From Melioribacteraceae bacterium (GTDB lineage Bacteria; Bacteroidota; Ignavibacteria; Ignavibacteriales; Melioribacteraceae): 64,000 nt of DNA. The position numbers were made by a program, and so were the translations under genes. The notes beneath the pieces are model-generated. The model was not told the origin of the DNA and searched no databases. It saw only the letters and a program-made list of their open reading frames with translations. Location: assembly GCA_034521465.1 (NCBI GenBank), contig JAXHMN010000012.1, forward strand, positions 24,359-88,358, read 5' to 3'. Of this stretch, positions 31,290 through 54,025 are shown piece after piece (the first letter of the stretch is position 1; each line of letters opens with the position of its first letter).

Positions 31290-31332
31290 TGTCAAAATAT
31301 TGACAGCAAACCTCTCACCTTCATCCTAAATT
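31290..31332 (+). promoter_or_regulatory. Palindromic operator TGTCAAAATATTGACA plus -10-like TAAATT (site P1)
   Basis: Palindrome 31290-31305, then 21 nt, then TAAATT 31327-31332. ATG of the downstream ORF is at 31370. Confidence 0.7.
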
Positions 31333-32492: not shown

Positions 32493-32535
32493 TGTCAAAA
32501 TATTGACAGAAACCCCATCAACCGTCGCTTATCTT
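32493..32535 (+). promoter_or_regulatory. Palindromic operator TGTCAAAATATTGACA plus -10-like TATCTT (site P2)
   Basis: Palindrome 32493-32508, then 21 nt, then TATCTT 32530-32535. The yceI-like ATG is at 32598. Confidence 0.7.
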
Positions 32536-35079: not shown

Positions 35080-37567
35080 ATGAATCCGATTAAAAAATAT
35101 TTCAATTGGCTGCAGAAAGATAATCCTACCGGCGAAGTAGAAAAGTATCCCGAAATTGATGAACATGGTGAAACATCTCTTAAGGGTGTTTACATTAGCG
35201 GTGATCTTACCGGCATTCCCTTATTAAAATTTGCGGCGGAAAACGGCAAGGAAGTTATTGATCGTTTTATGGCTGATGATGAATACAAAAAATTATTGAA
35301 GGAAAAATCATCCGAAGATGTCTATGATCTGATTATCATTGGCGCCGGTATTTCGGGCATATCTGCCGGACTGGAAGCGAAGAAGCACGATTTGAATTTT
35401 ACGATACTTGAGTCCTCCGAGAAGTTTCAAACAATTTGCAATTTTCCAAAAGGAAAACCGATATATGCCGAACCCGATGATCTTCACCAGAAAGCGGAAT
35501 TGAAAATCGATGACGGCACAAAGGAATCATTGCTCGATGATCTTCACTCACAAATACAAGGTACAGATCTTAATATTCATGAAGGTGTTGAAGTAAAAGA
35601 ACTCTCTCGTAAAGATAATTTAATAGAAATAAAAACGAATACTGAAACTTTTAAGTCGGCTAAGAGTTCTTCTGGCGATTGGTAAATCGGGCAATCCGCG
35701 TGAACTGAACGTACCGGGAAAAGATAAAGGAAAAGTCTTTAACAGGTTATTCGATCCTGAAGACGCCAAGGGAGAAAAAGTTTTGGTAGTGGGCGGAGGA
35801 GATTCGGCTCTTGAAACAGCAATTGCAACTTCGGAACATGCTGAATCAGTTACTTTCTCATACCGCGGTGACAGTTTCACCAGACCGAAAGAAAACAACA
35901 AAGAAAAATTAGAACAGCTTGTTAATGAAGGTAAAATTGATCTTCGTCTGGAAACAAATGTTAAAGAGATCAAAGATGATTCAGTAATTCTTGTTGATAA
36001 AGAGGGTAATGAAAAAGAATTTGAAAACACTGTCGTATTTACAATGCTCGGCCGCGAGCTGCCGGTAGAATTTTTTAAGCGAAGCGGAATTAAAATGGAA
36101 GGCGAGTTGTCGCTCACGGCAAAATTACAGTTTGCTCTTCTGTTACTCTTTTCCACCGTCCTCTATTTCGGAAAAAGCAGCGCTGATTTTTACGAAAGTT
36201 TTTTCGGTAAAGTCGATTCATGGGGAACAGTTTTTACTAGCATTTTCAGCGGAGAATTCTGGTATAAATTTATTTCACTTCCCGAAGTTCTCTTTTCCGC
36301 GTTGTTCTCGGATTCGGTTAGGATTTGGAACGTAACGAAGTATATTAATGCAACAATTGCCTACTTCTCGTTTATAGCATTTTTCCTGCTCGGAGTTTAC
36401 CTCCTATATAAATTTATACGGGATTATGCTCCCAAAATTAAATTAAACTGGCAGACATTCAAGTATGCGTATTTTATATCTCTCGGTATCTTCTTTGCAG
36501 TCATCTTTTTTGGCGGAAGATATTACGGTGTAGAGTTACTCGGAAAGTCGCAAGGATTTTGGTACACCGGTTTTTATTCGCTGACAATTTTATTATTCGG
36601 TCTCAGAAGGATGCATGTAAAACCTACGCGTTATATCAAACTTCAGACATGGACGTTAATCCTTATTCAAGCCCTTCCACTCTTTATATTACCCGAATTT
36701 ATTTTTCCTTTCTTGGGAAAAATAGGCGCGCTTGGCGGAGAAAACGGTTTCGTGTTTACTCAAGTTTTTCCTAAAGAAAGTTACTGGAGATCATACGGAT
36801 TTATTTTAGCTTGGCCTCTTAATTTTTATAATCTCTATAATTCCAATATCACAACTTTCTGGCTGGTCTTTAGTATCATTCAAACATTTGTGATTATTCC
36901 CTACATAGTTTATAGATGGGGCAAAGGCGCTTATTGCGGATGGATATGTTCATGCGGTGCTTTAGCGGAAACACTCGGCGATGAATATAGAACTCTTGCA
37001 CCACACGGACCAAAGGCGAAAAAATGGGAAAACTTTGGGCAGTGGGCGTTACTCGCAGCTTTTGTAATTACCGGGCTGAAATTAATTTCGGTTCTATATA
37101 ATATTCCAATTCCAATAATTAATGAAAAAGTTTCTTACGCAGCCGACTTTCTTCATAAATTCTATTATATCGGGATTGATGTAATCTTTGCCGGAGTGCT
37201 TGGCGTAGGCGTTTACTTTTTTATGAGCGGAAGAGTTTGGTGCCGTTTCGGATGCCCGCTTGCCGCTTGGATGCATATTGTAAATCGTTTTACACGTTAT
37301 AGAATATTTGCCGATAAGAAGAAATGTATCTCATGTAACATCTGTACGAAAGTTTGTCACATGGGAATTGATGTAATGAATTATGCAAACAAAGGTATCC
37401 CGATGAATGATGTTGAATGCGTCCGTTGTTCCGCATGCGTTGTTAATTGCCCGACCGATGTTCTATCATTTGGAAGTTTACCTAAAGCCGATCCCGATAA
37501 TGAACTATATAAAAAAATAGAAATACCTGTTCTTAATCATGATGATTGGAAAAGCGGATTAAGGTAA
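35080..37567 (+). CDS. FAD/NAD(P)-dependent pyridine-nucleotide-disulfide-type oxidoreductase fused to a polytopic membrane 4Fe-4S (polyferredoxin-like) domain; one apparent frameshift near 35655-35665
   Basis: 'YDLIIIGAGISGISAG' and (next frame) 'RVLLAIGKSGNPRELNVPGK...KVLVVGGGDSALE' are the two dinucleotide-binding motifs. ~8 TM helices follow. C-terminal 'CISCNICTKVC...CVRCSACVVNCP' are two 4Fe-4S ferredoxin motifs. Confidence 0.75.
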
Positions 37568-37570
37568 TCA

Positions 37571-38924
37571 ATGAGTGTTAAATATTCAGTTATTATTCCT
37601 ACATTAAATGAAGAACTATATCTAGAAAACACTCTTCAAAGCCTAAGTGGATTCTGTGAATTATGAGATAATAATTTCAGACGGGGGAAGCAACGATGAT
37701 ACTTCTAAAATTGCGGAAAAGTTTAATGCAAAAATCGTAAACTCTGAAGCCGGAAGAGGAATACAATTAAATAAAGGAATTGATGCGGCAAATGGTGAAA
37801 TACTTTGCTTTCTTCATGCCGACACTGCTTTGCCGGATAATGCTTTTGAATTATTAGAAGAATTTTTTCAGGATATTGAAAATAAAATATGCCGATTCAA
37901 ACTAGGTTTTGATGTCGATCATAGAGTGCTAAACTGTTACGGATATTTTTCTAAATTCGATACGCTTTTTACAAGATTCGGCGACACGTTTATAGCGGCA
38001 AGAAATGATTTCGTTGAGGAAATCGGGAGTTTTCCGAACTGGAAAAATTTTGAAGATGTTAAATTTCTCCGGGAAGCATCAAAGAGAAGCAAAGTATTTG
38101 TTCTGGATCAGGAGGTTGTTTCCTCTGCAAGAACGTTTGTTAAATATGGCTTGGTTGGGCAGCAGTTAATCAGTATTAATTATTTCGTAAAGTACCTTCT
38201 TGGTCAGAGGAAATTTATTAAAGAAGGTAGTTATTACAAAAGAAAGATGAAAAAAGTAACTGCGTCAATAATATTGTTTGTTAAATATCCGGTTGAAGGA
38301 AATGTAAAAACCAGGTTGGCTAAAACAATTGGAAATGCAAAAGCCGCAAAGATTTATTCATTGCTCGCGGAAAATATAATAACAAACATTAAAAAAATGA
38401 CGAATACCTACAATTATCTATTTTACTCTAATTCTTCGGAAAAGGAGAAAATCAAAAAGTGGATAAAAGGAAATTTCTTTTACGCGCCGCAGAAAGGAAA
38501 CGGACTCGGTGAAAGAATGAGTAATGCATTCAGACTTGTATTCGGTCATGGTGCAAAAAAAGTTTTGATAATCGGAACAGATATTCCCGGACTATCAACT
38601 GAAATTATTAAGGAAGCAGTTACAAAATTAGATGAATACGATGCTGTAATCGGACCATCGCCCGACGGTGGTTATTATCTTTTGGGAATGAAAAGATTTA
38701 TTCCCGAACTCTTTGAAAATATTACTTACAGCACCGATTCAGTTTTTGAAGAGACAATCAAAAAAATAAAGAATGAAAATCTTACTTATTCTCTTCTAAA
38801 CACAAAAGAAGATATTGATACGGAAGATGAATTGAAAAATTGGTTAAATAATTCCAAAGACACACAACTTAAAAAGGAAATATCTGAAATATACTTTCAG
38901 AATTATGAAAGGAATCTGGTTTGA
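37571..38924 (+). CDS. Fusion of a GT2 glycosyltransferase (TIGR04283-like) with a DUF2064 nucleotidyl-transferase-like domain (TIGR04282-like); apparent frameshift near 37645-37655
   Basis: 'YSVIIPTLNEE' ... 'EIIISDGGSNDDT...GRGIQLNKG...ILCFLHADTALP...VVSSARTF', then with no stop 'ASIILFVKYPVEGNVKTRLA...IIGTDIPGL...VIGPSPDGGYYLLG'. Confidence 0.75.
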
Positions 38925-39685
38925 GAAAATATTTTATATCAGTTATTGTAATTATATTATTTTATACTAATTCTTATTCGCAAGATCACCAACTCTTTAC
39001 CGAAATTCTTCAAGATTATGTGAAGTACGGATTAGTCGATTATAAAAATTTGGAAGATGACAAAAGACTTGCCCAATATCTCGATCAACTTTCTGTTGTT
39101 AATCCCGGTGATTTATCAAAAAAAGAACAACTAGCATTTTGGATTAATGTTTACAATGCTTTTACACTTAAAATTATTTGCGATAATTATCCTTTGGGAA
39201 GTATTACCGATCTTCATACCGGCGGAAGAATTATTGGACATATTCTTGGGCAGACGGTTTGGGACAAAGAGTATATTAAAATTAACGGCAGCGAGTATAA
39301 TCTAAATGAAATAGAACATGAAATATTAAGAAAAATGGATGAACCACGAATTCATTTTGCAATTGTCTGTGCTTCCATAAGCTGCCCCGAACTTAGAAAT
39401 GAAGCTTTCGAAGCAGACAAACTTGAAATTCAATTAGAAGAACAGACGCAAAGATTTATAAACGATCCTTCGCGCAACTCTTTTGATTTGGGAAATCGTG
39501 AAGCTGAAATATCCGAGATTTTCAACTGGTTTGATGAAGATTTCGGTGATTCGGAAGAAGAAGTTTTAATTTTTATATCAGATTATCTTACCGATGAAAT
39601 TGCGTCAGAGATAAAAGATAATTTCAGTGAATGGGATATATCTTATATGGATTATGATTGGGGATTGAATGAATATAAAGATTGA
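38921..39685 (+). CDS. DUF547-domain protein
   Basis: 'EQLAFWINVYNAFTLKII...RIHFAIVCASISCPELRNEAF' is the DUF547 signature. Overlaps the upstream stop by 4 nt. Confidence 0.8.
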   Translation: MRKYFISVIVIILFYTNSYSQDHQLFTEILQDYVKYGLVDYKNLEDDKRLAQYLDQLSVVNPGDLSKKEQLAFWINVYNAFTLKIICDNYPLGSITDLHTGGRIIGHILGQTVWDKEYIKINGSEYNLNEIEHEILRKMDEPRIHFAIVCASISCPELRNEAFEADKLEIQLEEQTQRFINDPSRNSFDLGNREAEISEIFNWFDEDFGDSEEEVLIFISDYLTDEIASEIKDNFSEWDISYMDYDWGLNEYKD

Positions 39686-39756
39686 TTATCAAAAACTATT
39701 TCAATCTGTCTATAAATTGACACAATAATCTTTCAAAGAATCATAAGTTTCAAATT

Positions 39757-40485
39757 ATGTTAACAGCAACTTACAGAACAAATCGTGCAATAGTATTATT
39801 TATTAAGAACGAAAAGATAAGAAACCCAAAAATCTTTAGTTCACGGGTAGCTTATGATCTGTTCAATACGAAAATTGAAAAATTGGTTGCTCAAGTAAAA
39901 GATAAAATAGATGTCGATATAATTCTCTGTTCCGATGATCCTTCTTTAATTAAATCAAATAAGTTTATTAGACAAACCGGTAAATCATTTGACGAAAAAT
40001 TTAATAATGCAATTGACAAAACGTTTCAATTAGGTTACGATGAAATAATAATCACCGGTAATGATTCTCCGGATCTTACCTCTCAACATATAATTGAATC
40101 CTTCGTCAATATTTCCAATGAAAAAATTGTTGTCGGTCCCTCGTACGACGGCGGTATCTATCTTCTTGGATTGGCAAAAAAATCATTTGAATCAAAGATA
40201 AAAGCGAGATGGAATACTTCTCATGTTAAAAATGATATTTTAAATGTATTCCGTGATAAAGAAGTATTATTACTGGATCATCTTTACGATATAGATAATG
40301 AAAAAGATCTTATCAGTTGGTTTTCAACAAAATCAAAGTCCGCAATATTATTTCAAAAGTTAGTTAAAGCGGAGACTGCAGTAAAACAAAAAGACCGTTT
40401 AACACACCACACAAATTCAACCGAACAAAACATTTTCAGAATCCACACACAAAAAGCTCCGCCCCATATAATTTCTTTCGTGTAA
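39757..40485 (+). CDS. Second DUF2064-like protein
   Basis: 'AIVLFIKNEK...IIITGNDSPDLTSQHI...VVGPSYDGGIYLLGL' parallels the second half of 37571-38924. Confidence 0.55.
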   Translation: MLTATYRTNRAIVLFIKNEKIRNPKIFSSRVAYDLFNTKIEKLVAQVKDKIDVDIILCSDDPSLIKSNKFIRQTGKSFDEKFNNAIDKTFQLGYDEIIITGNDSPDLTSQHIIESFVNISNEKIVVGPSYDGGIYLLGLAKKSFESKIKARWNTSHVKNDILNVFRDKEVLLLDHLYDIDNEKDLISWFSTKSKSAILFQKLVKAETAVKQKDRLTHHTNSTEQNIFRIHTQKAPPHIISFV

Positions 40486-40524
40486 GCAGTCATTCCATTT
40501 TTACATATTGATTGGGGAAATTAG

Positions 40525-41649
40525 ATGAAAAAACTAATTACAGTTTTATTGGGGCACATTTTTGTTTTAAGCGCTGTGTTTGGTCAATCGCTGACATACA
40601 AACCGGGCGGCGGTGTTAAGCTAAGCAGCGAAGAGGAGAAGTGGAGTTTCCGGACTCTCGGTTATGTTCAAAGCACTTTCACGTATCATAATCAAAAAGA
40701 GAACGGTTCTGTTGATAACTCTTTCTTTGTAAGAAGAGCGAGACTCGATTTTATTTTCGATTACCTCGATAAATATCAACTCTTTATTGAAATTGACGGA
40801 CGTGGCGGAAGAACTGAATTAGTTCTTGCTCAGGTTGATATAGAGTATATAGACAACCATAAAATTGAAGTTGGTAAATTCATTACTCCATTTTCACCGG
40901 AAAATTTAAGATCATCTCGCGCGCTTTCAACCGTAGAACGATACTCCGGGTTAAACTCAATATTTTTACTTCCGGGTTTGGACACTCAATACGGCATAAT
41001 GTTTTTAGGCAGCTTTGATAAACTTAATTACTATCTGAGCATAACAAACGGAAACGGGAAAGCATCCGATAATCTCAAAGAAAATAATAATGCAAAAGAT
41101 CTCCAAGTAAGATTGGAATATAATTTAACGGAAGATTTTAAGTTCGGCGGCAGTTTCAATTTAGCCGATGAACTTACACAAGAAATTAAATTAGTCGATC
41201 ATACATTCGAAAGTTTTAACACTGCCAAGATCAACGGGCGTAGGAACGGTTACTTAGGGTATGCCGAATTTGAAAACAATAGTATTCTATTAAGAGGAGA
41301 AGTATTTCTATTCCGGTTTAATAATGATTTGTCAACAGATCAGCAAATCGAAAGTTTTATCGGTGGTTACGGTGAGATCGGATATTTTATTTCAGGCAAC
41401 TATTCACATGGTTTGCAATTAATCGGCAGATATGAAACAGCGCGTTATGATAATGTACATCAATCACTTAACGGGCCGACAGTTGTGAATTCATTTATCT
41501 TCGGTCCCAATATTTATCTCGATGGAATATTCCGTCTCCAAATAAATTTGATTTACGAAAAAGCCGATTCACCTTCATTAATTCCTGGCAGATTTGAAGG
41601 TAAGGATGATGATCTCCAATTATTAACAATGTTGCAGATAAAATTTTAA
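40525..41649 (+). CDS. Outer-membrane porin (phosphate-selective porin O/P-like)
   Basis: Signal peptide, 'FFVRRARLDF' motif, alternating beta-strand pattern, C-terminal 'LLTMLQIKF'. Confidence 0.6.
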   Translation: MKKLITVLLGHIFVLSAVFGQSLTYKPGGGVKLSSEEEKWSFRTLGYVQSTFTYHNQKENGSVDNSFFVRRARLDFIFDYLDKYQLFIEIDGRGGRTELVLAQVDIEYIDNHKIEVGKFITPFSPENLRSSRALSTVERYSGLNSIFLLPGLDTQYGIMFLGSFDKLNYYLSITNGNGKASDNLKENNNAKDLQVRLEYNLTEDFKFGGSFNLADELTQEIKLVDHTFESFNTAKINGRRNGYLGYAEFENNSILLRGEVFLFRFNNDLSTDQQIESFIGGYGEIGYFISGNYSHGLQLIGRYETARYDNVHQSLNGPTVVNSFIFGPNIYLDGIFRLQINLIYEKADSPSLIPGRFEGKDDDLQLLTMLQIKF

Positions 41650-41658
41650 GAGGGGAAT

Positions 41659-43001
41659 ATGGAAAGCGTACTTTACTGGCAGTGGGGAATTTTGATTGTT
41701 GCTACCTTGTTCCTCTATTATATTTCTCCGAAAGCCGTAACCAACGAAGGTTTCTTTGCCGGTGTTGGTGTTGGAGATACTAAACCCAATTATTTTACAC
41801 TGACTTTTAGTTTAATCATTTCTTGGATTTTTGCTAAGTCGATAACCAATGCAGCAAACTTGGGTTTAAGTTTCGGGATTGTCGGCGGAACTGCATATGC
41901 CGTTTATTATCTATCTTTTATTGTTGCCGGGATAATAATTTACAAACTAAGAACTCAAGGAAAGTTTGAAAGCATTCATCATTTTTTAAATACAAAATTC
42001 GGGAAATCGGCGCTTGTAATTTTTTCTCTTTTAATCGGTATTAGACTGCTCAACGAGATCTGGTCAAATTCGATGGTCATAGGAACTTACTTCGGTGAAC
42101 AAGGATCGGCAGGATATATACTTTCTATTATAGTTTTTACGGGACTGACTTTAGCATATACTTTGAAAGGCGGTTTGAGCAGTTCTTTATTTTCGGATAT
42201 TATTCAAATGGGATTGTTTGCAATTCTTTTAATTGTTGTGTTAACGCTTGTCTTCGGCAAAGAAGGTTCGATCACTCCTTTTGTGCAGTCGGGTGAATGG
42301 AGCTTTGCCGGTGGACTTGATTTGTTCTTTGTAGCTTTGATTCAAATATTTAGTTATCCTTTTCACGATCCGGTTATGACAGACCGTGGATTTATATCTG
42401 GTGAAAAGACAACTTTAAAAAGTTTTCTAACTGCAGGAGTATTCGGATTTGTCTTTATACTTCTCTTCAGTCTAATAGGAATTTACGGAAAACTTATCGG
42501 CGTTGAAGGGCAAGCAGCAGTTGAAGTTGCAAAAACCCTCGGCGTTGTAAGTATGATTATTATGAATTTTATAATGATTACTTCTGCATCATCAACTATT
42601 GATTCAACTTTTTCATCAATTTCAAAATTGATAGTAGTTGATCTCGGGAATAAGCAGACCGTATCTGTTAGAAAAGGTAGAATTGCGATGATACTCACGG
42701 CAATTGGCGGCACTATCCCGATTTTCTTCTCGCCAACGATTTTATCCGCTACAACAATCAGCGGAACAATGGTACTGGGTTTAGCGCCCGTATTTGTTTT
42801 TTGGAAAGTTCCCGCACCTAAGTTATCTTTTTATCTTGCTGTGGCAGTAGGATTAATTGCCGGCTTAGCAGTTGTGTTTGGCTGGATGCCAGAATCTTTT
42901 TATCTAACGGCAGGAAATATGCCGGGTTGTTGACGGTTAACTTTTATGCATCAATTTTAATTCTTGTTGCATATTTTCTTCCCATTGTATTTAAAAAATA
43001 A
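41659..43001 (+). CDS. Sodium:solute symporter (SSS) family transporter; apparent frameshift near 42905-42930
   Basis: ~12 TM helices. The last helix 'YAGLLTVNFYASILILVAYFLPIVFKK' is readable only in the adjacent frame after the ORF's stop at 42933. Confidence 0.65.
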
Positions 43002-43016
43002 AAACTAAAAATTGAT

Positions 43017-43910
43017 ATGAACATAACTCATCCCAAACTAAAAATAGATTCACTCGACAATTTGTGGTTTCAAGTAAGCGGTACAATATGCAATATCGCT
43101 TGCAAACACTGCTTTAATAATTCGAGTCCGACTAACAGAAATTTCGGATTTCTCACACTTGCAGAATGCGAAAGCTATTTAGAAGAATCAGTTGAATTGG
43201 GAGTAAAAGAATATTACTTCACCGGTGGCGAGCCATTTGCGAACAAAGAAATGATTCAAATTATTGAGAAAACTTTGGAATACGGACCCGTAACCGTATT
43301 GACAAACGGAATGCTAATCAACGAAGAGAAAGCAAAACGTTTGGCGAAGATAGAAAGTAAAACGATCTTCTCATTAGAAATGCGCGTAAGTCTCGACGGT
43401 TTCACAGAAGAAATGAACGATGAAATTCGAGGAAAAGGTGTTTTCAAAAAGACGATGATCGGTGTGGAAAATCTTTATCGTCACGGATTTTTACCGATTA
43501 TAACAGTAACTAAAACTTGGAATGATTCCGAAGACGAAAAAGTAATGAACGGCTTTCGCGATCTGCTTATTTCCCACGGTTATCTTCGTCCACGAATTAA
43601 AATTCTGCCATCATTAAAAATCGGAAAAGAAGCAGTTCGGACAAAAGGTTATGATAAGTATGAATACATAACCGAGGAAATGATGAATGGTTTCGATGAA
43701 GATCAGTTGCTCTGCTCAAACAGCCGTTTGGTCACGAGCAAAGGTGTTTATGTCTGCCCAATATTAATTGAATCGGACGATGCAAAAGTTGGTGATGATC
43801 TTCCGGGTTCGATGAAACCTTACGAGCTAAAACATCAAGCATGTTACACTTGCTATCTTTACGGCGCTATCTGTTCTAACTTTTCAACAAGCGCAAGGGA
43901 GGAATTATGA
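43017..43910 (+). CDS. Radical SAM enzyme with a C-terminal Cys-rich (SPASM/twitch-like) region
   Basis: CxxxCxxC in 'GTICNIACKHCFN', 'YFTGGEPF', 'RGKGVFKKT'. C-terminal 'CSNSRLVTSKGVYVCP...HQACYTCYLYGAICSN'. Confidence 0.8.
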   Translation: MNITHPKLKIDSLDNLWFQVSGTICNIACKHCFNNSSPTNRNFGFLTLAECESYLEESVELGVKEYYFTGGEPFANKEMIQIIEKTLEYGPVTVLTNGMLINEEKAKRLAKIESKTIFSLEMRVSLDGFTEEMNDEIRGKGVFKKTMIGVENLYRHGFLPIITVTKTWNDSEDEKVMNGFRDLLISHGYLRPRIKILPSLKIGKEAVRTKGYDKYEYITEEMMNGFDEDQLLCSNSRLVTSKGVYVCPILIESDDAKVGDDLPGSMKPYELKHQACYTCYLYGAICSNFSTSAREEL

Positions 43911-44694
43911 GTGTAAAACTTGCATTGATCGGTGGAGTTTATAATAATTATATCGCACTTGATGAAGCAGTAAAAGATGCGAAGAAAAAAGGAGTCGATG
44001 AAATATTTTGTCTCGGCGATCTCGGCGCATTCGGTCCGCATCCCGATAGAGTTTTTCCGATTCTTCATGAAAATAATGTTAAAGTTATTCAAGGTAATTA
44101 TGATCATTCGGTCGGCAACGGATTTGGATGATTGCCAATGCGGTTATACCGATCCGCGCGATAACTACTATGCTAAACTCAGCTATGATTATACGTTTCA
44201 GAAATACTTCCGATGAACAAAATAAAATGTGGTTAAAAGAACTTCCGAAGGAAATTAGATTTGAAATTGATGATAAAAAAATTCTTCTGTGTCACGGTTC
44301 TCCGAGAAGAACAAACGAATTTTTATGGGAATCAACAACTTCAAATCACTTTCTTAATAAAATGTTTAATGAATATGATGCGGATATAATTATCGGCACT
44401 CACACCGGCATTCATTGGGACAGACAGATTGAAGATAAACTTTTTGCAAATGTCGGAGTAATCGGCAGACCAGAAAATAACGGCGAAACTTATGTCGGTT
44501 ATTCAATTCTCGAGCTAGAAAAAAATAATGCCAAGATAGAATATATCCCATTTGAATATGATCATACCCGGCTTGGAAAGGAAATGAAAAAAGAAAAAAT
44601 TCCCGAACCTTTTATCGAAACAATACTAACCGGTTGGTGGACGACGTGCTTGGAAGTACTTCCCGCAAAGGAAAGAATTCGTGGAAAGTTTTAG
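43907..44694 (+). CDS. Metallophosphoesterase (YfcE/Metallophos_2-like); two apparent frameshifts (about 44115-44130 and about 44195-44205)
   Basis: 'LALIGGVYNNY...IFCLGDLGAFGP...VIQGNYDH', then 'LDDCQCGYTDPRDNYYAKLSYDYTF' in a second frame, then 'LLCHGSPRR...IIGTHTGIHW' in a third. Overlaps the radical SAM stop by 4 nt. Confidence 0.8.
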
Positions 44695-44734
44695 TATTAT
44701 AGATTTCTGTTTTCCCAAATATAGAGCGTAAAAG

Positions 44735-45430
44735 ATGCTTCAAGAAAAAAGAATAGTTGTAATAATTCCGGCGGTAAATGAAGAAGAATCAATCACGAAT
44801 GTGCTACAAGACATTCCCGGCTTTGTAGATGAAATTATTGTTGTTGATAACGGATCGAGTGACAACACCGCAAAAATCGCAAGTGAAAACGGAGCAACGG
44901 TTTTAACGGAAAATGAAAGGGGATACGGCGCTGCTTGTTTGAAAGGAATTGAACTTATAAAAAGTAAAAATTATGATATTGTCGTTTTTCTAGACGGCGA
45001 TTACAGCGATCATCCCGAAGAAATGAATTTGATTATGAAGCCAATTATAAACGACGATTATGATATGGTAATCGGTTCCCGGATGATCGGTCACAGACAA
45101 AAAGGTGCAATGCTTCCGCAGGCATTGTTCGGCAATTGGCTTGCTGCGTTTTTAATCAAATTATTTTGGAAGTATAAGTTCACCGATCTCGGTCCTTTTA
45201 GAGCAATTAAATATGATTCATTAATGAAATTGAATATGGCAGACCGCAATTTTGGCTGGACTGTTGAAATGCAGATAAAAGCGGCAAAACAAAAATTGAA
45301 ATGCACTGAAGTTCCGGTAAGCTATAGAAAAAGAATCGGCACCTCAAAAGTTACCGGCACGTTCTCCGGTACAATAAAAGCTTCCTACAAAATTCTTTAC
45401 CTAATTTTTGTAAGTCTTCTCAAACATTAA
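44735..45430 (+). CDS. GT2 glycosyltransferase (polyprenol-phosphate sugar synthase-like)
   Basis: 'VVIIPAVNEEESI...IIVVDNGSSDNT...VVFLDGDYSDHPEE...VIGSR'. Confidence 0.85.
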   Translation: MLQEKRIVVIIPAVNEEESITNVLQDIPGFVDEIIVVDNGSSDNTAKIASENGATVLTENERGYGAACLKGIELIKSKNYDIVVFLDGDYSDHPEEMNLIMKPIINDDYDMVIGSRMIGHRQKGAMLPQALFGNWLAAFLIKLFWKYKFTDLGPFRAIKYDSLMKLNMADRNFGWTVEMQIKAAKQKLKCTEVPVSYRKRIGTSKVTGTFSGTIKASYKILYLIFVSLLKH

Positions 45431-45466
45431 TTTATTCCTTCAAAAAAGCATCAGCCAGCCACAATT

Positions 45467-45509
45467 GTCAAAATGTTGACAGTTAGGAAACTATCTGAGC
45501 TATATCTTT
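45467..45509 (+). promoter_or_regulatory. Palindromic operator TGTCAAAATGTTGACA plus -10-like TATCTT (site P3)
   Basis: Palindrome 45467-45482, then 21 nt, then TATCTT 45504-45509. Downstream ATG at 45539. Confidence 0.7.
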
Positions 45510-45538
45510 TGTTCTAAAAGTAAAAGGGTATATCAACG

Positions 45539-46459
45539 ATGAAAAAAATAATAACTTTAACTGCATTAGTAATTATAATTTTTAGTGCCGGGTTTATGTT
45601 CTTGACCAAAAACACAGAAGTCAACAAAGAACAAATCGCAATTGAGTACAATTTTTCTAAAGAGTTCAAAAATTATTGGCTGGCGGGAAAAGCCGAACTT
45701 TCATCTTACGAATTATCAAAAGCACGGTACGGTGAAATTCATTCCGGTGAAGCAGTTTTGGTTTTTGTTGTCGAACCTTTCTTGCCAATAGAGCAAGTGA
45801 AGAGTGACGGATTCCCTTCGGATGAAAAATCTGAAAGAGTTATGAAACTTATAAACTCGCAGCATTTTTATACCGGAATTTATCCTTATTCGATAATGAC
45901 TTCATCCTTTTACCCACTTAACAAAAATAGAAACGGCGTTTTGAAAATCAGTATGTCGAGCCAAGATTGGTGCGGTCAAGTATATTCGCAGATCAATGAC
46001 CGGGATGATTACTTCGAAGTTCGGAGATATTCTTACTTCCAGAATGAGGGTGATGAAAAATTAAATTTAGAAAAAGGACTGACCGAAGAGGAACTTTTTA
46101 CCAAAGCAAGGTTGGAACCCAAAAATTTACCGGTTGGAAAATTATCGCTTTATCCCTCAGTAGAATATTTCAGATTGACGCACACTGAAATAGATATGTA
46201 TTCGGCAGAAGCTTCTTTAATCAAAAATGAAGAGGAATCTCTCTACAAAATTGAATACAAGAATATTGACCGTGAACTTATAATACGATTTGCAAATGAT
46301 TTTCCGCATTATATTCTAGGGTGGGAAGAAACCTATTCCGATTTTTCCGGCAAGCGGTTAACTTCGACCGCGCAATTAAAGAAAAGTATTCAATTAGATT
46401 ACTGGCAATTTAATTCAGCAAAGGATTCAACTTACAGGCAATTACTAGCATTAAAATAA
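45539..46459 (+). CDS. Exported/anchored hypothetical protein
   Basis: 306 aa with an N-terminal hydrophobic segment. No family recognised. Directly behind operator P3. Confidence 0.45.
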   Translation: MKKIITLTALVIIIFSAGFMFLTKNTEVNKEQIAIEYNFSKEFKNYWLAGKAELSSYELSKARYGEIHSGEAVLVFVVEPFLPIEQVKSDGFPSDEKSERVMKLINSQHFYTGIYPYSIMTSSFYPLNKNRNGVLKISMSSQDWCGQVYSQINDRDDYFEVRRYSYFQNEGDEKLNLEKGLTEEELFTKARLEPKNLPVGKLSLYPSVEYFRLTHTEIDMYSAEASLIKNEEESLYKIEYKNIDRELIIRFANDFPHYILGWEETYSDFSGKRLTSTAQLKKSIQLDYWQFNSAKDSTYRQLLALK

Positions 46460-46461
46460 TA

Positions 46462-47796
46462 TCATTTTTCATCAAAGCCCTCTGAGATTCTCGGGATTGC
46501 AATAAATGAATTCCGGGAATCTTTTTTATTTAGAATGAACCAAAATTCATAGAGCAGCAAAATTATGACAGGAATATACTCGATCAATAAAATAATAGTA
46601 TTTTCATCCCAAACATTTTCCAACTGATAAATCATTACCGTATAAAATGTAATCGAGATAAGTGAGATATAGCTTATTCCACTTAATTTAGGATTAACAA
46701 CCAATAGAACAATGAGCCATGCAGCATACCAAGGATGAACGACAGGTGAGCAAAGAAGAAAAAACATCAATGAATAGAAAAGTGACGAGAAAACATCTTT
46801 ATTGTATCGAAGCAGCACTAGGTAAATGAGTATAAACAGAATAAGCAGGATAAACCGAATAACAAATGTGTCATTCAAAAAGACTGTTAACAAATTGAAC
46901 GCAGCGCCATTAAAACTCCAATGCCGTGAATAATTTATTAATGTCTCAAATGGATTTGCGGTAAACGAAAAAGGTATAAAACTTACAGCCAGTAAAATAA
47001 TTGGAATAACAAGCCATTTTAATTTGTCTTTCATTTCCTTTTCGTAAAAAAAGAAAATTGGAATTGCGATCATAAACGTCGGCTTAACTATTAACGAAGC
47101 GCCGAGAAATAAAGCGGCAAATATTTTTTGCTCTTTAAAAAAGTAAATTGAATAGAGGAATAAAGCCATACCAAGTATATCAATGTGAGCATCAATGAAG
47201 AATTGATAAAAAACCAAAGGACTCAAAACATAAAGCAAAACATATTTATTATTGATTTGATTTTTTTTAAGAAGCAAAAAGAAACCGAAGGTCAATAAAA
47301 TATCCGATAAAATCATTATGACTTTCAAACCCCAAATACTCTCACCGCCAATTAAATAAACAAATGCAAATACAGCTTGCGAAAGTGGAAAATAAATTGT
47401 TTTTATATCAGGGTAAGTAACTTCTTTAGGAAGTAATTCGGAATGTAAGTGACTTAACGATTCGGAGTTGGGTGGAAACTGAAAGGGATTAATACCGTTG
47501 ACTAAAACTTTACCATCCCATAAATATCTGTAATAATCATCAGACCCAACCGGTAATATCTCCATCGAAAATATCTTAAAGAGAAAAAAAAATGTCGTGA
47601 TCCAAAAGATATATTTTAATTCAACTTCTACTTTGTAAAGGATTAATGCGCACACGAGATAAAGTATTGAAGCAGATGAAATAGTAAAAAAGTAACTCTC
47701 GATACTCCGGTCGATGAAAACGAACCATGCATAATTGAGAATTATTATTGCGGCAAAAATGAATAGCAGATATTTTTTATTTAACAGCAATTTCAT
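46462..47796 (-). CDS. Polytopic GT-C-type glycosyltransferase-like membrane protein (DUF2029/MptB-like)
   Basis: ~12 TM helices. The first loop 'PVGSDDYYRYLWDGKVLVNGINPFQFPP' resembles the S-x-D-x3-Y...G-x-NPY loop of polyprenol-phosphate-dependent mannosyltransferases. Confidence 0.55.
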   Translation of the reverse strand: MKLLLNKKYLLFIFAAIIILNYAWFVFIDRSIESYFFTISSASILYLVCALILYKVEVELKYIFWITTFFFLFKIFSMEILPVGSDDYYRYLWDGKVLVNGINPFQFPPNSESLSHLHSELLPKEVTYPDIKTIYFPLSQAVFAFVYLIGGESIWGLKVIMILSDILLTFGFFLLLKKNQINNKYVLLYVLSPLVFYQFFIDAHIDILGMALFLYSIYFFKEQKIFAALFLGASLIVKPTFMIAIPIFFFYEKEMKDKLKWLVIPIILLAVSFIPFSFTANPFETLINYSRHWSFNGAAFNLLTVFLNDTFVIRFILLILFILIYLVLLRYNKDVFSSLFYSLMFFLLCSPVVHPWYAAWLIVLLVVNPKLSGISYISLISITFYTVMIYQLENVWDENTIILLIEYIPVIILLLYEFWFILNKKDSRNSFIAIPRISEGFDEK

Positions 47797-47807
47797 GTCT
47801 TACAGAT

Positions 47808-47850
47808 TGTCAATATATTGACAAAAGAACTTATTTATTAAAAGTAAATT
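47808..47850 (+). promoter_or_regulatory. Palindromic operator TGTCAATATATTGACA plus -10-like TAAATT (site P4)
   Basis: Palindrome 47808-47823, then 21 nt, then TAAATT 47845-47850. It faces the + strand gene at 48044. The minus-strand ATG (47796) is only 11 nt from the palindrome, so that gene is not served by it. Confidence 0.65.
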
Positions 47851-48043: not shown

Positions 48044-49178
48044 ATGAATAAAATATTTCTGCTAGGTTTAATATTCTCAACATTAATATGGGGTCAAATG
48101 AAAAATCCCAAAAATATTCCTTTCAATTGGAAAACCGATACGACACAAACAATAATTGATCTATCTGAATTATCGGTTGTGCTACCGCGCGGAAGTTTTC
48201 AAGTTTTGAATTACCCTAAATTTATTGGCAAAGAAAAAGGATTAGGCGAATATTTCAAAAGAGAACCCGTAATGGCTGTAGAAATTGACGGCAATGCAAA
48301 AGCTTATCCGCTGAATGTTCTTTCGATTCACGAAATTGCTAATGATACGTTAGAGGGTAATCCTATACTTGCAACATTTTGCCCGCTATGTAATTCCGGA
48401 ATTGTTTTTGACAGACAGTTGAATCACAACGGGAAAGAGTATCTTCTTGATTTTGAAGTCTCAGGAATGCTGCGCAAAAGTGATATGGTGATGGCAGATA
48501 AACAAACAGAAACTTGGTGGCAGCAATTACTGGGAAAAGGAATTGTTGGTGAACTAGCCGGTGTTGAGTTGGACATAATCCCATCACTAATAATTTCGGT
48601 AAAAGAATTCTTTGATCGTTTTCCAGACGGGCAAATATTATCGAAAGAGTCGGGCAACCTTAAAGCACAGCAAGCTTACGGCAAAAATTATTACGAGAAT
48701 TACGACAGTGAGGATGGTAAACCTTACGGAAGATTTTTTGATGAAGATGATTTAGATTCCCGTCTGCCTCCGATGGAGCGAATTGTTGACATCAGAAGTC
48801 AAGGTGAATTTAAGGTTTATCCGTTTTCGGTCATTAAGGAGAAAGGGGTCATAAACGATGAGTTTAACGGAAAAAATGTTGTGTTGTTTTATCAATCCGG
48901 AGTTGTATCCGTTTTAGATAAGAAAGATATTTCAGAGTCAAAAGATATTGGCACTGCTACTGTTTTTAATTCTATGCTGGATGGAGAAGTCTTAACAGTT
49001 ACAAAACAGGTTGATGATCAAGTTTATTGATATTAATACAAATTCAAATTGGGATATAACCGGTAGATGTATTAGTGGTAAATTAAATGGCAAGCAACTT
49101 GAAATAGAACCTCACGGAAATCACTTTGCATTTGCTTGGCTGGCATTTAATCCAAATACAAAAATATATGGACAGTGA
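48044..49178 (+). CDS. DUF3179-domain protein (paralog 1); apparent frameshift near 49015-49025
   Basis: Signal peptide and 'YPLNVLSIHEIANDTLEGNPILATFCPLCNSGIVFDR'. The C-terminus 'INTNSNWDITGRCISGKLNGKQLEIEPHGNHFAFAWLAFNPNTKIYGQ' is readable in the next frame. Confidence 0.75.
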
Positions 49179-49332: not shown

Positions 49333-49797
49333 ATGAAGAAATACATTTTATTTACCGTGTTTATAATTGTTTTGCAGTTTAGCTTAATCGCTCAAACTAA
49401 AACTGAAAGTAAAGTAATTAAAAAAGAACAAACTTCGGAGGCGCTTACTATGCAAAACGAATCGGATCAGCTTGTAATTCTTTGGACATCCGGCGATCCT
49501 GATGTCGCAATTAAAATGGTCTTTATGTATGCAAAGGGTTCTATGAAAAATGATTGGTGGAAATCAATTAATCTTATTATTTGGGGACCATCATCCAAAT
49601 TAACAAGTGAGAACGAACAGATACAAAATGAAATTAAGGAAATGCAAAAATTAGGAATTGTTGTTGAAGCTTGTAAAGCTTGTGCAGATCAATACGGTGT
49701 GGCAGATAAGTTAGAAGATCTTGGAATAGATGTAAAATATATGGGCGAACCGCTAACCGATTTTATTAAATCTGATGCGAAGGTTGTTACTTTTTAA
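49333..49797 (+). CDS. DsrE/DsrF-like family protein with signal peptide
   Basis: 'LVILWTSGDPDVAIKMVFMYA...WGPSSKL...VVEACKACADQYGV' resembles the DsrE-like fold family. GGAG RBS. Confidence 0.6.
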   Translation: MKKYILFTVFIIVLQFSLIAQTKTESKVIKKEQTSEALTMQNESDQLVILWTSGDPDVAIKMVFMYAKGSMKNDWWKSINLIIWGPSSKLTSENEQIQNEIKEMQKLGIVVEACKACADQYGVADKLEDLGIDVKYMGEPLTDFIKSDAKVVTF

Positions 49798-50068: not shown

Positions 50069-50111
50069 TGTCAAAATGTTGACAGTTTCGCTGCCCGCCT
50101 CAATTTATCTT
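50069..50111 (+). promoter_or_regulatory. Palindromic operator TGTCAAAATGTTGACA plus -10-like TATCTT (site P5)
   Basis: Palindrome 50069-50084, then 21 nt, then TATCTT 50106-50111. Downstream ATG at 50240. Confidence 0.7.
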
Positions 50112-51205: not shown

Positions 51206-52273
51206 ATGTTTAGAAAATATTTAGCTATAACACTAATATTGTTTTTATTACCGGTTTGGTGGGGTTGTGAAGAATCCGAAAGCAGCAGTTCACCGGACTT
51301 GAGCGATAATCCACCGGAGTGGTTGATACCAACAAATGAAATATTTGACGGCGGTCCCGGTAAAGACGGGATACCCGCACTAACAACGCCCGAAATGGCA
51401 AATGCCGGTACAATAAGTTACCTGAATGATAACGACCTTGTAATTGCAACTAAACTAGATGGGGAGGTTAGAATCTACCCGCATAAAATTCTAGATTGGC
51501 ACGAAATAATTAATGATGTAATTAATGATCATAGATTTGCGATAACTTATTGTCCATTAACTGGTTCGGGAATTTCATACGATAGAGTTTTAAACGGCAG
51601 GGTAACCACATTTGGAGTCAGCGGGCTTTTATATAATACTAATTTAATTCCATACGATAGGGCAACAAACAGCAACTGGTCACAAATGAAAATGATGAGC
51701 GTTAACGGTGATTTGATAGGGCAGACTGCAGATACCTTTCCTATAATTGAAACTACATGGGGTAATCTTAAAAGCTTTTACACTGAAGCAAAAGTTGTAA
51801 CAACCAACACCGGTCATTCAAGAAATTATAATAGATTTCCCTACGGAGATTACAAAACGAATCATAATTTTCTCCTCTTCCCCGTTTCTCATAAAGATGA
51901 TAGACTTCCTAGAAAAGAACGTGTACTCGGTATTTTTCATAATGGTGTTGCAAAAGCATTTAGATTTTCGTCTAACACACTCTCTTTAATTGAATCGAAT
52001 GTTGGGGGGACTAATATTGTTGTTGTCGTGAGCAAAAATGATAATTTAATTATGGCATACCAACCGGAATTAGTAAACGGAGAAAAAGTATCACTGAGTG
52101 TTGATAATAATAGTTTACCCGTAATTATGAAAGATGAAAATAATAATGAATACGATATTTTTGGAACCGTCGTCTCCGGTCCGGCTGAAGGTGAAAGACT
52201 TAAGTCGGTAACTCAATTTATTGCTTATTGGTTTGCTTGGGCGGCGTTTTACCCGGAAACATCCCTGCAGTAA
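51206..52273 (+). CDS. DUF3179-domain protein (paralog 2)
   Basis: 'YPHKILDWHEIINDVINDHRFAITYCPLTGSGISYDR' and C-terminal 'FIAYWFAWAAFYPETSL' parallel 48044-49178. AGGAGG RBS. Confidence 0.8.
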   Translation: MFRKYLAITLILFLLPVWWGCEESESSSSPDLSDNPPEWLIPTNEIFDGGPGKDGIPALTTPEMANAGTISYLNDNDLVIATKLDGEVRIYPHKILDWHEIINDVINDHRFAITYCPLTGSGISYDRVLNGRVTTFGVSGLLYNTNLIPYDRATNSNWSQMKMMSVNGDLIGQTADTFPIIETTWGNLKSFYTEAKVVTTNTGHSRNYNRFPYGDYKTNHNFLLFPVSHKDDRLPRKERVLGIFHNGVAKAFRFSSNTLSLIESNVGGTNIVVVVSKNDNLIMAYQPELVNGEKVSLSVDNNSLPVIMKDENNNEYDIFGTVVSGPAEGERLKSVTQFIAYWFAWAAFYPETSLQ

Positions 52274-52391: not shown

Positions 52392-54025
52392 ATGACTGAA
52401 ACAAAAAAAAGAATTGAGGTTGCAAAATTTAGCGAACTCGAAGACCGAAAACCGACTTATGCGCTTGCCGAAAATGTTGATTTGGTTGTGATCAAATATG
52501 AAGAAGAAGTTTCTGTTTTATACGGAAGGTGTCTCCATCGCGGAGCGCTTTTATCCGACGGATTTGTTGACGGTGACAACTTAATCTGCGGTGTTCACTA
52601 TTGGGATTACAGATACGACACAGGAATAAGCGAGTACAACAATGAAGAACAATTAAAAAAATTTAAGTCGTGGATCGATAAAGAAAATGATGCTGTTTAC
52701 GTTGATGAAGATGAAATTAGACAATGGGAAAAAGATAATCCTCAACCATACGATCGTGAATCATATCATGGGCTTTATGCAGACATACACGGTGCCGAAG
52801 AAGAACCTTTTAATAATTATATCCAACAATTAGCGAATGGCGGAATTAAAGCTGTTGGTAAACACGGAGTTAATTCTGCAATGGGAGTTCCGTATAACGA
52901 ACTTCCAAAATGGAATGACATTCAAATTTTAACCGGACAACTCACAAACAAACCGCTGTTAGATGAAGACGATGTTTCCACTGAATTAGTTATAGGTCCA
53001 AGAGCAAAAAAACCGATGAAATTAAAGATCCCGATTTTTGTGAGTGATATGAGCTTTGGCGCTTTAAGTGAGGAAGCTAAAATTGCCTTGGCTAAGGGAG
53101 CAGAATTAGCCGGAACAGGGATTTGTTCGGGTGAAGGAGGAATGCTGCCGGAAGAACAGCAGAGCAATTCAAACGTATTTTTATGAATTGGCCTCCGCTA
53201 AATTCGGATGGAATATTGAAAACGTAAAGAACGTTCAAGCATTTCACTTTAAAGGGGGACAGGGAGCAAAAACCGGTACCGGCGGTCATCTCCCCGGCGA
53301 AAAAGTTAAAGGTAAAATTGCAGAAGTACGCGGACTTGAAGAAGGTAAAGATGCAATTAGTCCTTCTACATTTCCGGATTTAACCACTCCTGCCGATTTT
53401 AAAAAGCTTGCCGATGAAGTGCGAGAAATATCCGGCGGTATTCCAATCGGTTTCAAACTTTCTGCACAGCATATTGAAGCAGATATTGATTTTGCATTAG
53501 AAGCAAGTGCCGATTATATAATTCTTGATGGGCGCGGCGGTGGAACAGGTTCTGCTCCAAATATATTTAAGAACAATATTTCTGTCCCTACAATTCCCGC
53601 TTTAGCCCGTGCAAGAAAACATCTTGATAAAGTTGGCGCGGAAGATGTAACATTAATTATCACCGGCGGACTGAGAACAGAATCCGATTTTGTTAAAGCT
53701 TTAGCTCTCGGTGCAGACGGAATTGCAATTGCAAATTCTGCTATTCAGGCAATCGGTTGTTTGGGAATGCGCGCCTGCCATACTGAATAATTGCCCGGTG
53801 GGGATTGCAACTCAAAGAGAAGATTTACGCTCGCGAATAATTATCGATCAATCATCGAAACAATTACAAAATTATCTTGAAGCAACAACCGAATTAATGA
53901 AAGTGCTGTCAAGAGCCTGCGGACATGATAGTTTAAGCAAGTTTTCTATCGATGATTTAACAACGTTTAAAAAAGACATGGCTGAATTAAGCGGTATTAA
54001 ATTTGGCGGAGTTATAAATGAATAA
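52392..54025 (+). CDS. Rieske [2Fe-2S] domain fused to a glutamate synthase-related FMN domain (GltB domain 2-like); two apparent frameshifts (about 53165-53180 and about 53775-53790)
   Basis: 'CLHRGALLSDG...CGVHYWDY' (Rieske); 'VSDMSFGALSEEAK...GEGGMLPEE', 'KGGQGAKTGTGGHLPG', 'DGRGGGTGSAP', 'GGLRTESDFVKALALGADGIAIA', 'NNCPVGIATQ' are spread over three frames. Confidence 0.8.

Follow-up and report, generated by a model that had tools for sequence, protein, structure and literature searches.

We analysed a stretch of 64,000 nucleotides (hereafter the window) from a Melioribacteraceae bacterium (contig JAXHMN010000012.1, positions 24,359 to 88,358), in which a locus at 35.1-47.8 kb codes for an enzyme of the radical S-adenosylmethionine (SAM) type, here named rSAM-X, and for a partner with a metallophosphoesterase fold, named MPE-X. 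On balance, this locus is probably the Melioribacteraceae version of the arsenosugar-type cluster of Ignavibacteriota, carrying an alternative ArsS-type adenosylation module that would act on an imported trivalent arsenical or a related metalloid. We favour this reading because the locus has an orthologous ArsS context, rSAM-X is homologous to ArsS, rSAM-X is associated with genes of the ArsM, TIGR04282, TIGR04283 and TIGR04169 types and is fused to some of them, three import systems are found in rSAM-X loci, and the chemistry of ArsS is known. What is new here is an ArsS-type locus which uses an uncurated and widespread ArsS-like enzyme together with an obligate, degenerate phosphoesterase partner. 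An earlier note on this DNA had described the locus as related to the arsenosugar set but distinct from it, with an embedded import system, and both the gene swap and the ArsS homology described below support that view.

The ten genes that were named in the earlier note are all present at 37571-47796 with the motifs that it quoted. A flavoprotein-NapH gene lies upstream of them and yet is part of the conserved locus. The gene set was cross-read against the loci of two relatives, L004 and L005 (intact; radical SAM 88% identical to the window copy). The source genome has a low GC content of ~35%, and its radical SAM protein has a 100% identical counterpart in a Melioribacteraceae metagenome-assembled genome (Ignavibacteriota). 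From flavoprotein-NapH to the exported protein all genes are read in the same direction:

35080..37567, plus strand: NAD(P)H flavoprotein (YpdA/TrxR-like) fused to a NapH-like membrane 4Fe-4S protein, 828 amino acids once a frameshift near 35658 is repaired
37571..38924, plus strand: family 2 glycosyltransferase (GT2, TIGR04283-like) fused to DUF2064 (TIGR04282), ~450 amino acids, frameshift near 37656
38921..39685, plus strand: DUF547 protein with an N-terminal signal-like segment (PF04784, 107 bits), start codon uncertain, homology from 38951
39757..40485, plus strand: second, divergent DUF2064 (DUF2064b) with a CofC-like nucleotidyltransferase fold (PF09837, 60 bits; TIGR04282, 82 bits, below the cutoff of 134)
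40525..41649, plus strand: outer-membrane porin of the phosphate-selective O/P type (PF07396, 37.6 bits, gathering score 20.9)
41659..43001, plus strand: inner-membrane transporter, ~447 amino acids, 12-transmembrane-type, distantly like the solute:sodium symporters (SSS/SLC5), frameshift near 42915
43017..43910, plus strand: rSAM-X, radical SAM enzyme, 297 amino acids, with CX3CX2C and five invariant C-terminal Cys
43907..44694, plus strand: MPE-X, metallophosphoesterase-fold protein, ~261 amino acids, degenerate motifs I and III, frameshifts at 44122 and 44195
44735..45430, plus strand: second GT2 (GT2b) of the polyprenyl-phosphate hexose synthase type (AglJ/DPM-like; TIGR04182, 133 bits, below 325; PF00535, 76 bits)
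45539..46459, plus strand: exported or membrane-anchored protein, 306 amino acids, no family match, orthologues in L004, L005, L091 and L092
46462..47796, minus strand: polytopic membrane protein of the glycosyltransferase C (GT-C) type (MptA_B/GT87-like), likely start near 47646

The comparison with canonical ArsS loci carries most of the argument. The GT2-DUF2064 fusion is common in Ignavibacteriota (more than 100 clusters, including IALB_1975 of the cultured Ignavibacterium album), and a metagenome scan with the fusion protein gave two close relatives only. In I. album the locus (L100) consists of flavoprotein-NapH, GT2-DUF2064, DUF547, an AhpD-like protein, a radical SAM protein with DUF3641, GT2, GT-C on the minus strand, 6-phosphogluconate dehydrogenase and glucose-6-phosphate dehydrogenase. 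With 430 bits on TIGR04167 (cutoff 300), the radical SAM protein of this locus is a genuine ArsS, its AhpD-like protein belongs to TIGR04169 (157 bits, cutoff 120) and the I. album orthologue of GT2b comes directly after ArsS. Between L004 and I. album, flavoprotein-NapH is 80% identical, GT2-DUF2064 49%, DUF547 67%, GT2b 78% and GT-C 49%, and the two downstream pentose-phosphate genes are common to L005 and I. album. Since these flanking genes are orthologous and the middle alone differs, the change is a cassette swap: in an otherwise orthologous locus, TIGR04169 and ArsS are replaced by DUF2064b, the porin, the transporter, rSAM-X and MPE-X. rSAM-X sits in the same genomic slot as ArsS, and the accessory genes (GT2-DUF2064, DUF547, flavoprotein-NapH, GT2 and GT-C) are kept. 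Unlike ArsS loci, the window has a porin and a transporter embedded at this place and lacks TIGR04169: no such gene was found between DUF547 and GT2b, tblastn gave only a weak 37-bit match at 55321-55500, and the CMD (carboxymuconolactone decarboxylase) proteins of the window match TIGR01926 or Pfam CMD and not TIGR04169.

The earlier note had listed six differences from the arsenosugar set. Four of them, namely the fusion, the second DUF2064, the lack of arsM and the presence of GT2 with GT-C, turn out to be normal for this lineage because I. album and related ArsS loci already carry them: L102 has the same ArsS arrangement as L100 without GT-C, L103 has a second DUF2064 within its ArsS locus, and arsM is not adjacent to ArsS in L100 and L102. 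The remaining two, the unlike radical SAM protein and the embedded porin and transporter, are the real novelty of the locus. The statement that the window holds no ArsM-like gene was correct, and ars resistance genes were not found in the 64 kb either. In a locus of Ignavibacteriales (L101, JADJEI010000001.1), GT2b, the GT2-DUF2064 fusion and DUF547 stand together with no radical SAM gene within 10 kb, and the transferase module is therefore separable from its radical SAM partner.

Co-conservation of the genes, on which the reading of the earlier note depends, was also found. The full gene order of the window recurs in L004, L005, L091 and L092, and the central genes recur in Calditrichia and in L087, a record named Aliifodinibius/Zixibacteria. 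L091 (NPIE01003219.1) and L092 (NPID01007034.1) are metagenome contigs with a mosaic identity to L004. From the fusion gene through rSAM-X they are 98-99% identical to L004, while GT2b is 84% and GT-C 70% identical; upstream, the flavoprotein of L092 is 88% and its DUF2652 protein 54% identical. This mosaic hints at a recent recombination or transfer of the cassette.

The radical SAM protein had been described as non-ArsS, which is right for the family but not for its ancestry. On TIGR04167, rSAM-X gives 54.9 bits over residues 9-158 only, where the cutoff is 300, and DUF3641 (PF12345) was not matched at E <= 0.01; the precomputed Pfam domains of 120 rSAM-X homologues are PF04055 and PF13353 only. 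The possibility that this is an ordinary locus, with a bona fide ArsS and an arsM gene outside the window, was tested on its ArsS part and fails there by this score. The best NCBIfam match of rSAM-X is the Rv1681 family of the SPASM type (100 bits, cutoff 380). Nevertheless, an hhalign comparison of rSAM-X with three ArsS sequences gave a probability of 97.4% and E = 1.5e-11 over 224 columns that extend into the C-terminal domain. Among 16 diverse members, which are 58-88% identical, the Cys residues C25/C29/C32, C233, C247, C276, C279 and C286 are invariant, and in a joint MAFFT alignment with ArsS all eight (three and five), together with G243 and G283, are invariant and collinear. Here CSNSRLVTSKGVYVC of rSAM-X aligns opposite CRSLLSVSWDGKIYDC of ArsS and ACYTCYLYGAIC opposite HCFGCTAGAGSSC. 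The DUF3641-type pattern, which had been reported as missing, is present as a degenerate motif, LLCSNSRLVTSKGVYVCP, opposite ArsS VMCRSLLSVSWDGKIYDCD. rSAM-X therefore carries the pattern of ArsS, CX3CX2C followed by C..G..C ... CxxC..GxxC/U, and its terminal GxxC is the counterpart of the GxxU selenocysteine pattern that is listed for TIGR04167 (PMC13188914). rSAM-X is outside TIGR04167 yet, by these alignments, a distant, full-length homologue of ArsS with an identical Cys architecture. It differs from ArsS in its low identity (20-24%) and in being accompanied almost always by MPE-X and usually by a flavoprotein.

The AlphaFold model of rSAM-X (predicted local distance difference test, pLDDT, 78.6) has its nearest folds in BlsE, SkfB, MoaA, SuiB and anSME, which are SPASM/twitch enzymes; BlsE was matched with E = 2e-11 and SkfB with E = 2e-9, at a template modelling (TM) score of about 0.58, and BtrN is also among the best fold matches. 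Both CX9GX3C and CXXC are motifs that one expects in the auxiliary-cluster domain of such enzymes. However, rSAM-X has no Pfam SPASM match and only five C-terminal Cys, and its gene context appears to be metalloid-related and not that of antibiotic biosynthesis or of peptides made on the ribosome and modified afterwards (RiPPs). In the ArsL/ArsM arsinothricin system (NF040542), where ArsL transfers an aminocarboxypropyl group, a radical SAM gene is likewise genetically linked to an ArsM-type methyltransferase. Yet an ArsL-type identity was rejected, as the C-terminus of rSAM-X, ACYTCYLYGAICSNFS, lacks the RCCLKC tail that defines ArsL-type radical SAM proteins (10.1101/2024.02.01.577332), and no arsinothricin or RCCLKC-tail model is found among its 25 best NCBIfam matches. 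A hopanoid pathway of the HpnH/HpnI/HpnJ type, which was considered in view of a Glyco_transf_21 GT2 in Calditrichia, was rejected as well (HpnH 45 bits, HpnI 33 bits).

rSAM-X is not restricted to this lineage. With one genome per GTDB species, at least 538 relatives were found among the species representatives, in Planctomycetota, Verrucomicrobiota, Acidobacteriota, KSB1, Latescibacterota, Gemmatimonadota, Calditrichota, Ignavibacteriota, Bacteroidota and some Proteobacteria. When 1.84 billion representatives were searched exhaustively, the family proved compact, with 99 below E = 1e-30; it is highly conserved, its members being 50-88% identical across phyla. Neighbours were counted in 48 rSAM-X loci that have 3 kb or more of sequence on either side. 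MPE-X is present in 39 of them, its gene usually overlapping that of rSAM-X or lying less than 200 nucleotides away, and a flavoprotein in 31; separate Pyr_redox and Fer4_5 genes follow rSAM-X and MPE-X in L089, L010 and L018. DUF2064 was found in 12 loci from several phyla (the tested copies reach 115-126 bits on TIGR04282, just under 134) and an ArsM-like methyltransferase also in 12. Less frequent are DUF547 (5 loci), AhpD of the TIGR04169 type (4 loci; the tested copy has 127.8 bits, cutoff 120) and GT2 of the TIGR04283 type (3 loci; the tested copy has 215.9 bits, cutoff 182). ArsS genes were looked for in 80 rSAM-X loci and found in none. rSAM-X and MPE-X are a tightly linked pair, a point that the earlier note lacks, and the pair has a much wider distribution than the transferase locus; we found no description or model of this family in the literature, NCBIfam or Pfam.

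Several of these loci point to arsenic. In L021/L086, L024 and L039 an ArsM-like gene lies between rSAM-X and MPE-X; the top-scoring model for the methyltransferase of L021 is that of arsinothricin ArsM (384 bits) and, by eye, this protein has what we take to be the conserved Cys motifs of ArsM. The order in L029 is rSAM-X, MPE-X, DUF2064, a PiT-type carrier, ArsM and AhpD. Gene fusions also join the same partners: a flavoprotein to rSAM-X (P0363 and P0367), rSAM-X to ArsM (P0378 and P0418, with 237 and 193 bits on PRK11873), ArsM to an rSAM-X-like protein (P0490) and TIGR04282 to an rSAM-X-like protein (P0508, 163.6 bits, cutoff 134). Three types of importer are encoded in rSAM-X loci. The first is the porin with the SSS-like transporter, in metagenome-assembled genomes (MAGs) labelled Ignavibacteriota, Bacteroidota and Calditrichota, where the transporter adjoins rSAM-X; the second is a PiT/CysP-like carrier (L016, L029 and L085); and the third is a porin with an aminoethylphosphonate-like ATP-binding cassette (ABC) system in Verrucomicrobiota.

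Planctomycete loci look different in part. In eight of them (L032, L033, L043, L058, L061, L065, L071 and L084) a bona fide ThiO glycine oxidase (299.7 bits, cutoff 250.8) is encoded directly upstream of flavoprotein, rSAM-X and MPE-X; ThiO was considered as a functional part of the module in Planctomycetaceae and tentatively judged to be lineage-specific synteny. In Thalassoglobus polymorphus (L090, CP036267.1, 4430979-4451758) the pair has a dehydroquinate (DHQ)-synthase-like gene upstream and a GFO/IDH/MocA oxidoreductase gene downstream. A cyclitol pathway was rejected, since the DHQ-synthase-like gene was seen in this one locus only and GFO/IDH/MocA-like genes in few planctomycete loci.

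MPE-X is as conserved as rSAM-X, with 63-85% identity across phyla, and the cultured T. polymorphus is among its carriers. Its predicted fold is that of a metallophosphoesterase (pLDDT 77, TM-score 0.76 to the Ap4A hydrolase SapH), PF12850 is precomputed for its homologues, and the repaired window protein gives only weak matches to YfcE-type models. The earlier note associates a TIGR04168 metallophosphoesterase with the arsenosugar set. Provided that this model is part of the NCBIfam release used, TIGR04168 matched neither the repaired window protein (E <= 0.001) nor the L067 homologue (E <= 1). MPE-X shares the fold and motifs II, IV and V with the YfcE, SapH and PH1004 metallophosphoesterases, but motif I (DxH) is changed to GGxYxN and motif III (GNH[DE]) to GNYD, and both replacements are invariant in 16 sequences. 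Also unlike these enzymes, it has five extra Cys, in the invariant segments DCQCGYTDPRDN (DCQCGY) and TGWWTTCLE and at the near-invariant positions C35 and C128. The loss of the motif I Asp/His and of the motif III His argues that MPE-X is unlike an ordinary phosphoesterase and is probably catalytically degenerate. By PDB profile its closest solved relatives are 1nnw (Pyrococcus furiosus) and 2gju (P. horikoshii PH1004), which also have a degenerate motif I (ANIAGN for DxH) and motif III (GKYD for GNH[DE]) but not the Cys motif; there is therefore a wider metallophosphoesterase-fold subfamily without the canonical metal ligands. A metalloid-binding or Fe-S role may be suggested for MPE-X.

How such a module might work can be proposed from these parts, and the substrate, the chemistry, the part played by MPE-X and the final product are put forward here as a model. 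An anionic arsenical or a close analogue would enter through the O/P-type porin and the transporter, and its trivalent form might then be bound by the C-terminal Cys of rSAM-X, by MPE-X, or by both. ArsS adenosylates dimethylarsenite (DMAs(III)) to 5'-deoxy-5'-dimethylarsinoyl-adenosine (DDMAA) (PMC13598754). Like ArsS with DMAs(III), rSAM-X would cleave SAM and join the 5'-deoxyadenosyl radical to the metalloid. The flavoprotein/NapH-like protein could give or take electrons, and MPE-X and the flavoprotein may help in substrate handling or redox. DUF2064, with its nucleotidyltransferase fold, and the TIGR04283-type GT2 would process the riboside, after which the polyprenyl-phosphate GT2 and GT-C might attach the sugar to a membrane or periplasmic acceptor and give a glycoconjugate.

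A number of points weigh against an arsenic-dependent, ArsS-type module. rSAM-X has 100 bits on SPASM models of the peptide-maturase and Rv1681 types but only 55 on TIGR04167, and since CX9GX3-4C ... CXXC is a general feature of SPASM/twitch proteins, the collinearity with ArsS could be partly at the level of the superfamily. An ArsM-like gene is found near only about a quarter of rSAM-X loci, and the window has neither ArsM nor ars resistance genes. The neighbours in planctomycetes (ThiO in several MAG loci, DHQ-synthase-like and GFO/IDH/MocA proteins in Thalassoglobus) have no arsenic signal, and L090, with no flavoprotein, DUF2064 or ArsM nearby, is not explained by the arsenic model. The 'arsenosugar' names of the accessory families themselves go back to association with one characterised ArsS. 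Finally, with five frameshifts inside the locus, the window copy may be non-functional.

A bolder reading, which we regard as possible though rather less than probable, is that rSAM-X and MPE-X form a second carbon-metalloid bond-forming system in hundreds of species from more than ten phyla. Rather than simply standing in for ArsS, it would use another substrate that is imported directly, with the Cys-rich pseudo-phosphoesterase as a metalloid-binding or Fe-S partner, and would feed a new class of organo-metalloid glycolipids or glycoconjugates in Ignavibacteriota, Calditrichota and their relatives. Its substrate may be inorganic arsenite or arsenate, a methylarsenical, or a compound of Sb, Se or Te. 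To our knowledge, only ArsS and ArsL have been described as radical SAM routes to C-As bonds. rSAM-X/MPE-X may be another route to organo-arsenic compounds, spread over hundreds of bacterial species. Environmental surveys of arsenic biotransformation use arsM and arsS as marker genes; should the rSAM-X family produce organo-arsenicals, they overlook a large part of what microbes can make in the way of arsenosugars or arsenolipids. The module also gives a functional lead for DUF2064, DUF547 and the degenerate metallophosphoesterase subfamily, and cultured carriers exist for both versions, I. album for ArsS and T. polymorphus for rSAM-X/MPE-X.

Another question is whether the pathway operates in this genome at all. 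Compared with intact orthologues that are 70-88% identical, at least six single-base frameshifts occur in ~14 kb and five genes: the five sites given in the gene list (two of them in MPE-X) and one downstream of the locus, near 49018 in a DUF3179 gene. At least the fusion frameshift is present in the deposited MAG, because the NCBI record calls this gene as an N-truncated protein of 422 amino acids. The locus could then be a decaying pseudogene cluster, which we consider rather unlikely. Genes outside the locus are also broken, namely the DUF3179 gene and a Rieske/glutamate-synthase-like gene that is split into two overlapping open reading frames (52392-53790), and such a pattern is typical of assembly indel errors; this suggests window-wide errors of this kind rather than a decay specific to the locus. 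Moreover, apart from the shifts, the coding sequences still keep their identity of 70-88% to the intact orthologues.

The same architecture may serve a substrate other than arsenic. The module would then take up a different element that forms oxyanions (Se, Te or Sb) and turn it into another organo-metalloid riboside or glycoconjugate; this would account for the presence of a dedicated porin and transporter in place of a need for DMAs(III) made by ArsM. The first name given to the accessory families was 'selenodomain-associated', the sole NCBIfam match of the porin is a weak one to the ExtI selenite/tellurite porin model (27 bits), the CysP sulfate permease model is the best match of the PiT-type carriers of L016 and L029, the window flanks code for redox proteins of the DsrE/YedF and AhpD kinds, and ArsM is missing from most rSAM-X loci. 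These hints of Se or Te are, however, all far under the family cutoffs, and the methyltransferases beside rSAM-X or fused to it score best on arsenite methyltransferase models, so that we hold this option to be unlikely.

It is just as unlikely, in our estimate, that the cassette has no functional tie to ArsS and landed at the same recombination-prone spot, as a small-molecule module of its own for nucleotide or sugar modification, or for scavenging phosphorus from a phosphonate or phosphate ester. Nucleotides or sugars are indeed the substrates of the structural neighbours of rSAM-X (BlsE, MoaA, viperin-like enzymes and BtrN), SapH is the nearest characterised fold of MPE-X, the porin is of the phosphate-selective type, the binding protein of the verrucomicrobial ABC system resembles 2-aminoethylphosphonate binders (116 bits), and the mosaic identity around the cassette in L091 and L092 fits with such a spot. 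Yet this leaves the recurrent association with ArsM-type, TIGR04282, TIGR04283 and TIGR04169 proteins and the fusions in unrelated phyla unexplained, as well as the full-length homology to ArsS, and the loss of the motif I and motif III ligands sets MPE-X apart from an ordinary phosphoesterase. Least likely of all is that rSAM-X is a maturase which modifies or cross-links the DCQCGY and TTC Cys of its obligate partner into a new cofactor or active site, with MPE-X as the real catalyst: the nearly 1:1 pairing with overlapping genes, the maturases WgkB, StsB and MftC as next-best NCBIfam matches after the Rv1681 family, the fold neighbours anSME and SkfB, and the five (near-)invariant Cys beside a degenerate metal site in MPE-X would all fit, but the substrate of ArsS, which has the same Cys layout, is a small molecule, and ArsS of I. 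album is without such a partner, and the fusions found join rSAM-X to ArsM, DUF2064 or a flavoprotein and never to MPE-X.

As for the single genes, most domain calls of the earlier note stood (TIGR04282, DUF547, the second DUF2064, Porin_O_P, Radical_SAM, Metallophos_2 and GT2). The SSS call for the transporter is weak: 27 bits on TIGR00813 where the cutoff is 184, and a weak PDB match to SLC5A7 (E = 1e-4); its orthologue in a relative is intact, with 452 amino acids. The GT-C call is a probable one, drawn from relatives: the orthologues in L004, L005 and L100 carry PF26314 and a GT87-annotated protein of Calditrichia is homologous (E = 6e-18), but the window protein itself has no direct Pfam match, neither to PF09594 nor to PF26314. 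From the proposed TIGR04283/TIGR04282 pair, the C-terminal half of the fusion is a TIGR04282 member (210 bits, cutoff 134), while the GT2 half is a borderline miss on TIGR04283 (150 bits as called and 174 when repaired, cutoff 182); its I. album orthologue reaches 198.5 bits. Two 4-nucleotide overlaps had been taken as signs of an operon: the ATGA overlap of rSAM-X and MPE-X at 43907-43910 is real, but the one at 38921 needs a TTG start, for which the alignment of orthologues gives no support. DUF547 is kept in loci of the ArsS type as well as in those of the rSAM-X type, and no PDB relatives were found for it. The flavoprotein-NapH protein scores 139 bits on the NCBIfam YpdA model and 57 bits on NapH/MauN. 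The exported protein of 306 amino acids is confined to the closest relatives and gave no match in Pfam, NCBIfam or PDB searches. An Rfam scan of 33-50 kb gave no RNA families, and in a scan for promoters and terminators sites were no more frequent than chance.

The flanks of the locus look like a thiol/redox-stress neighbourhood, with DUF3179 paralogues (48044-49178 and 51206-52273), a DsrE-like protein (49333-49797) and AhpD/CMD-family proteins (31834-32391 and 55030-55587). The counterpart neighbourhood in L004 also holds OsmC, DoxX, AhpC and a MerA-like reductase. Several of the flanking DUF3179, DsrE-like and AhpD genes sit behind a palindrome of 16 bp, TGTCAA-N4-TTGACA, which occurs in five perfect copies and one with a single mismatch, all of them intergenic and upstream of genes that belong to the locus or surround it:

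31290-31305, 32493-32508 and 50069-50084: perfect copies
39707-39722: copy with one mismatch, upstream of the swapped cassette
45466-45481: perfect palindrome TGTCAAAATGTTGACA, the 'operator P3' of the earlier note, upstream of the exported protein, with the same site upstream of the L004 orthologue
47808-47823: perfect palindrome TGTCAATATATTGACA, between the divergent genes for GT-C and DUF3179

By a rough estimate, the chance expectation for a perfect copy is far below one. Perfect copies also occur in the relatives, in L004 (605 and 12438), L005 (1123) and L091 (6443). The palindrome looks like a putative Crp/Fnr-type operator, and its distribution suggests a possible regulon of ~22 kb (31.3-53.8 kb), larger than the interval of the earlier note. 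A Crp-family regulator is encoded at 55881-56492 on the minus strand.

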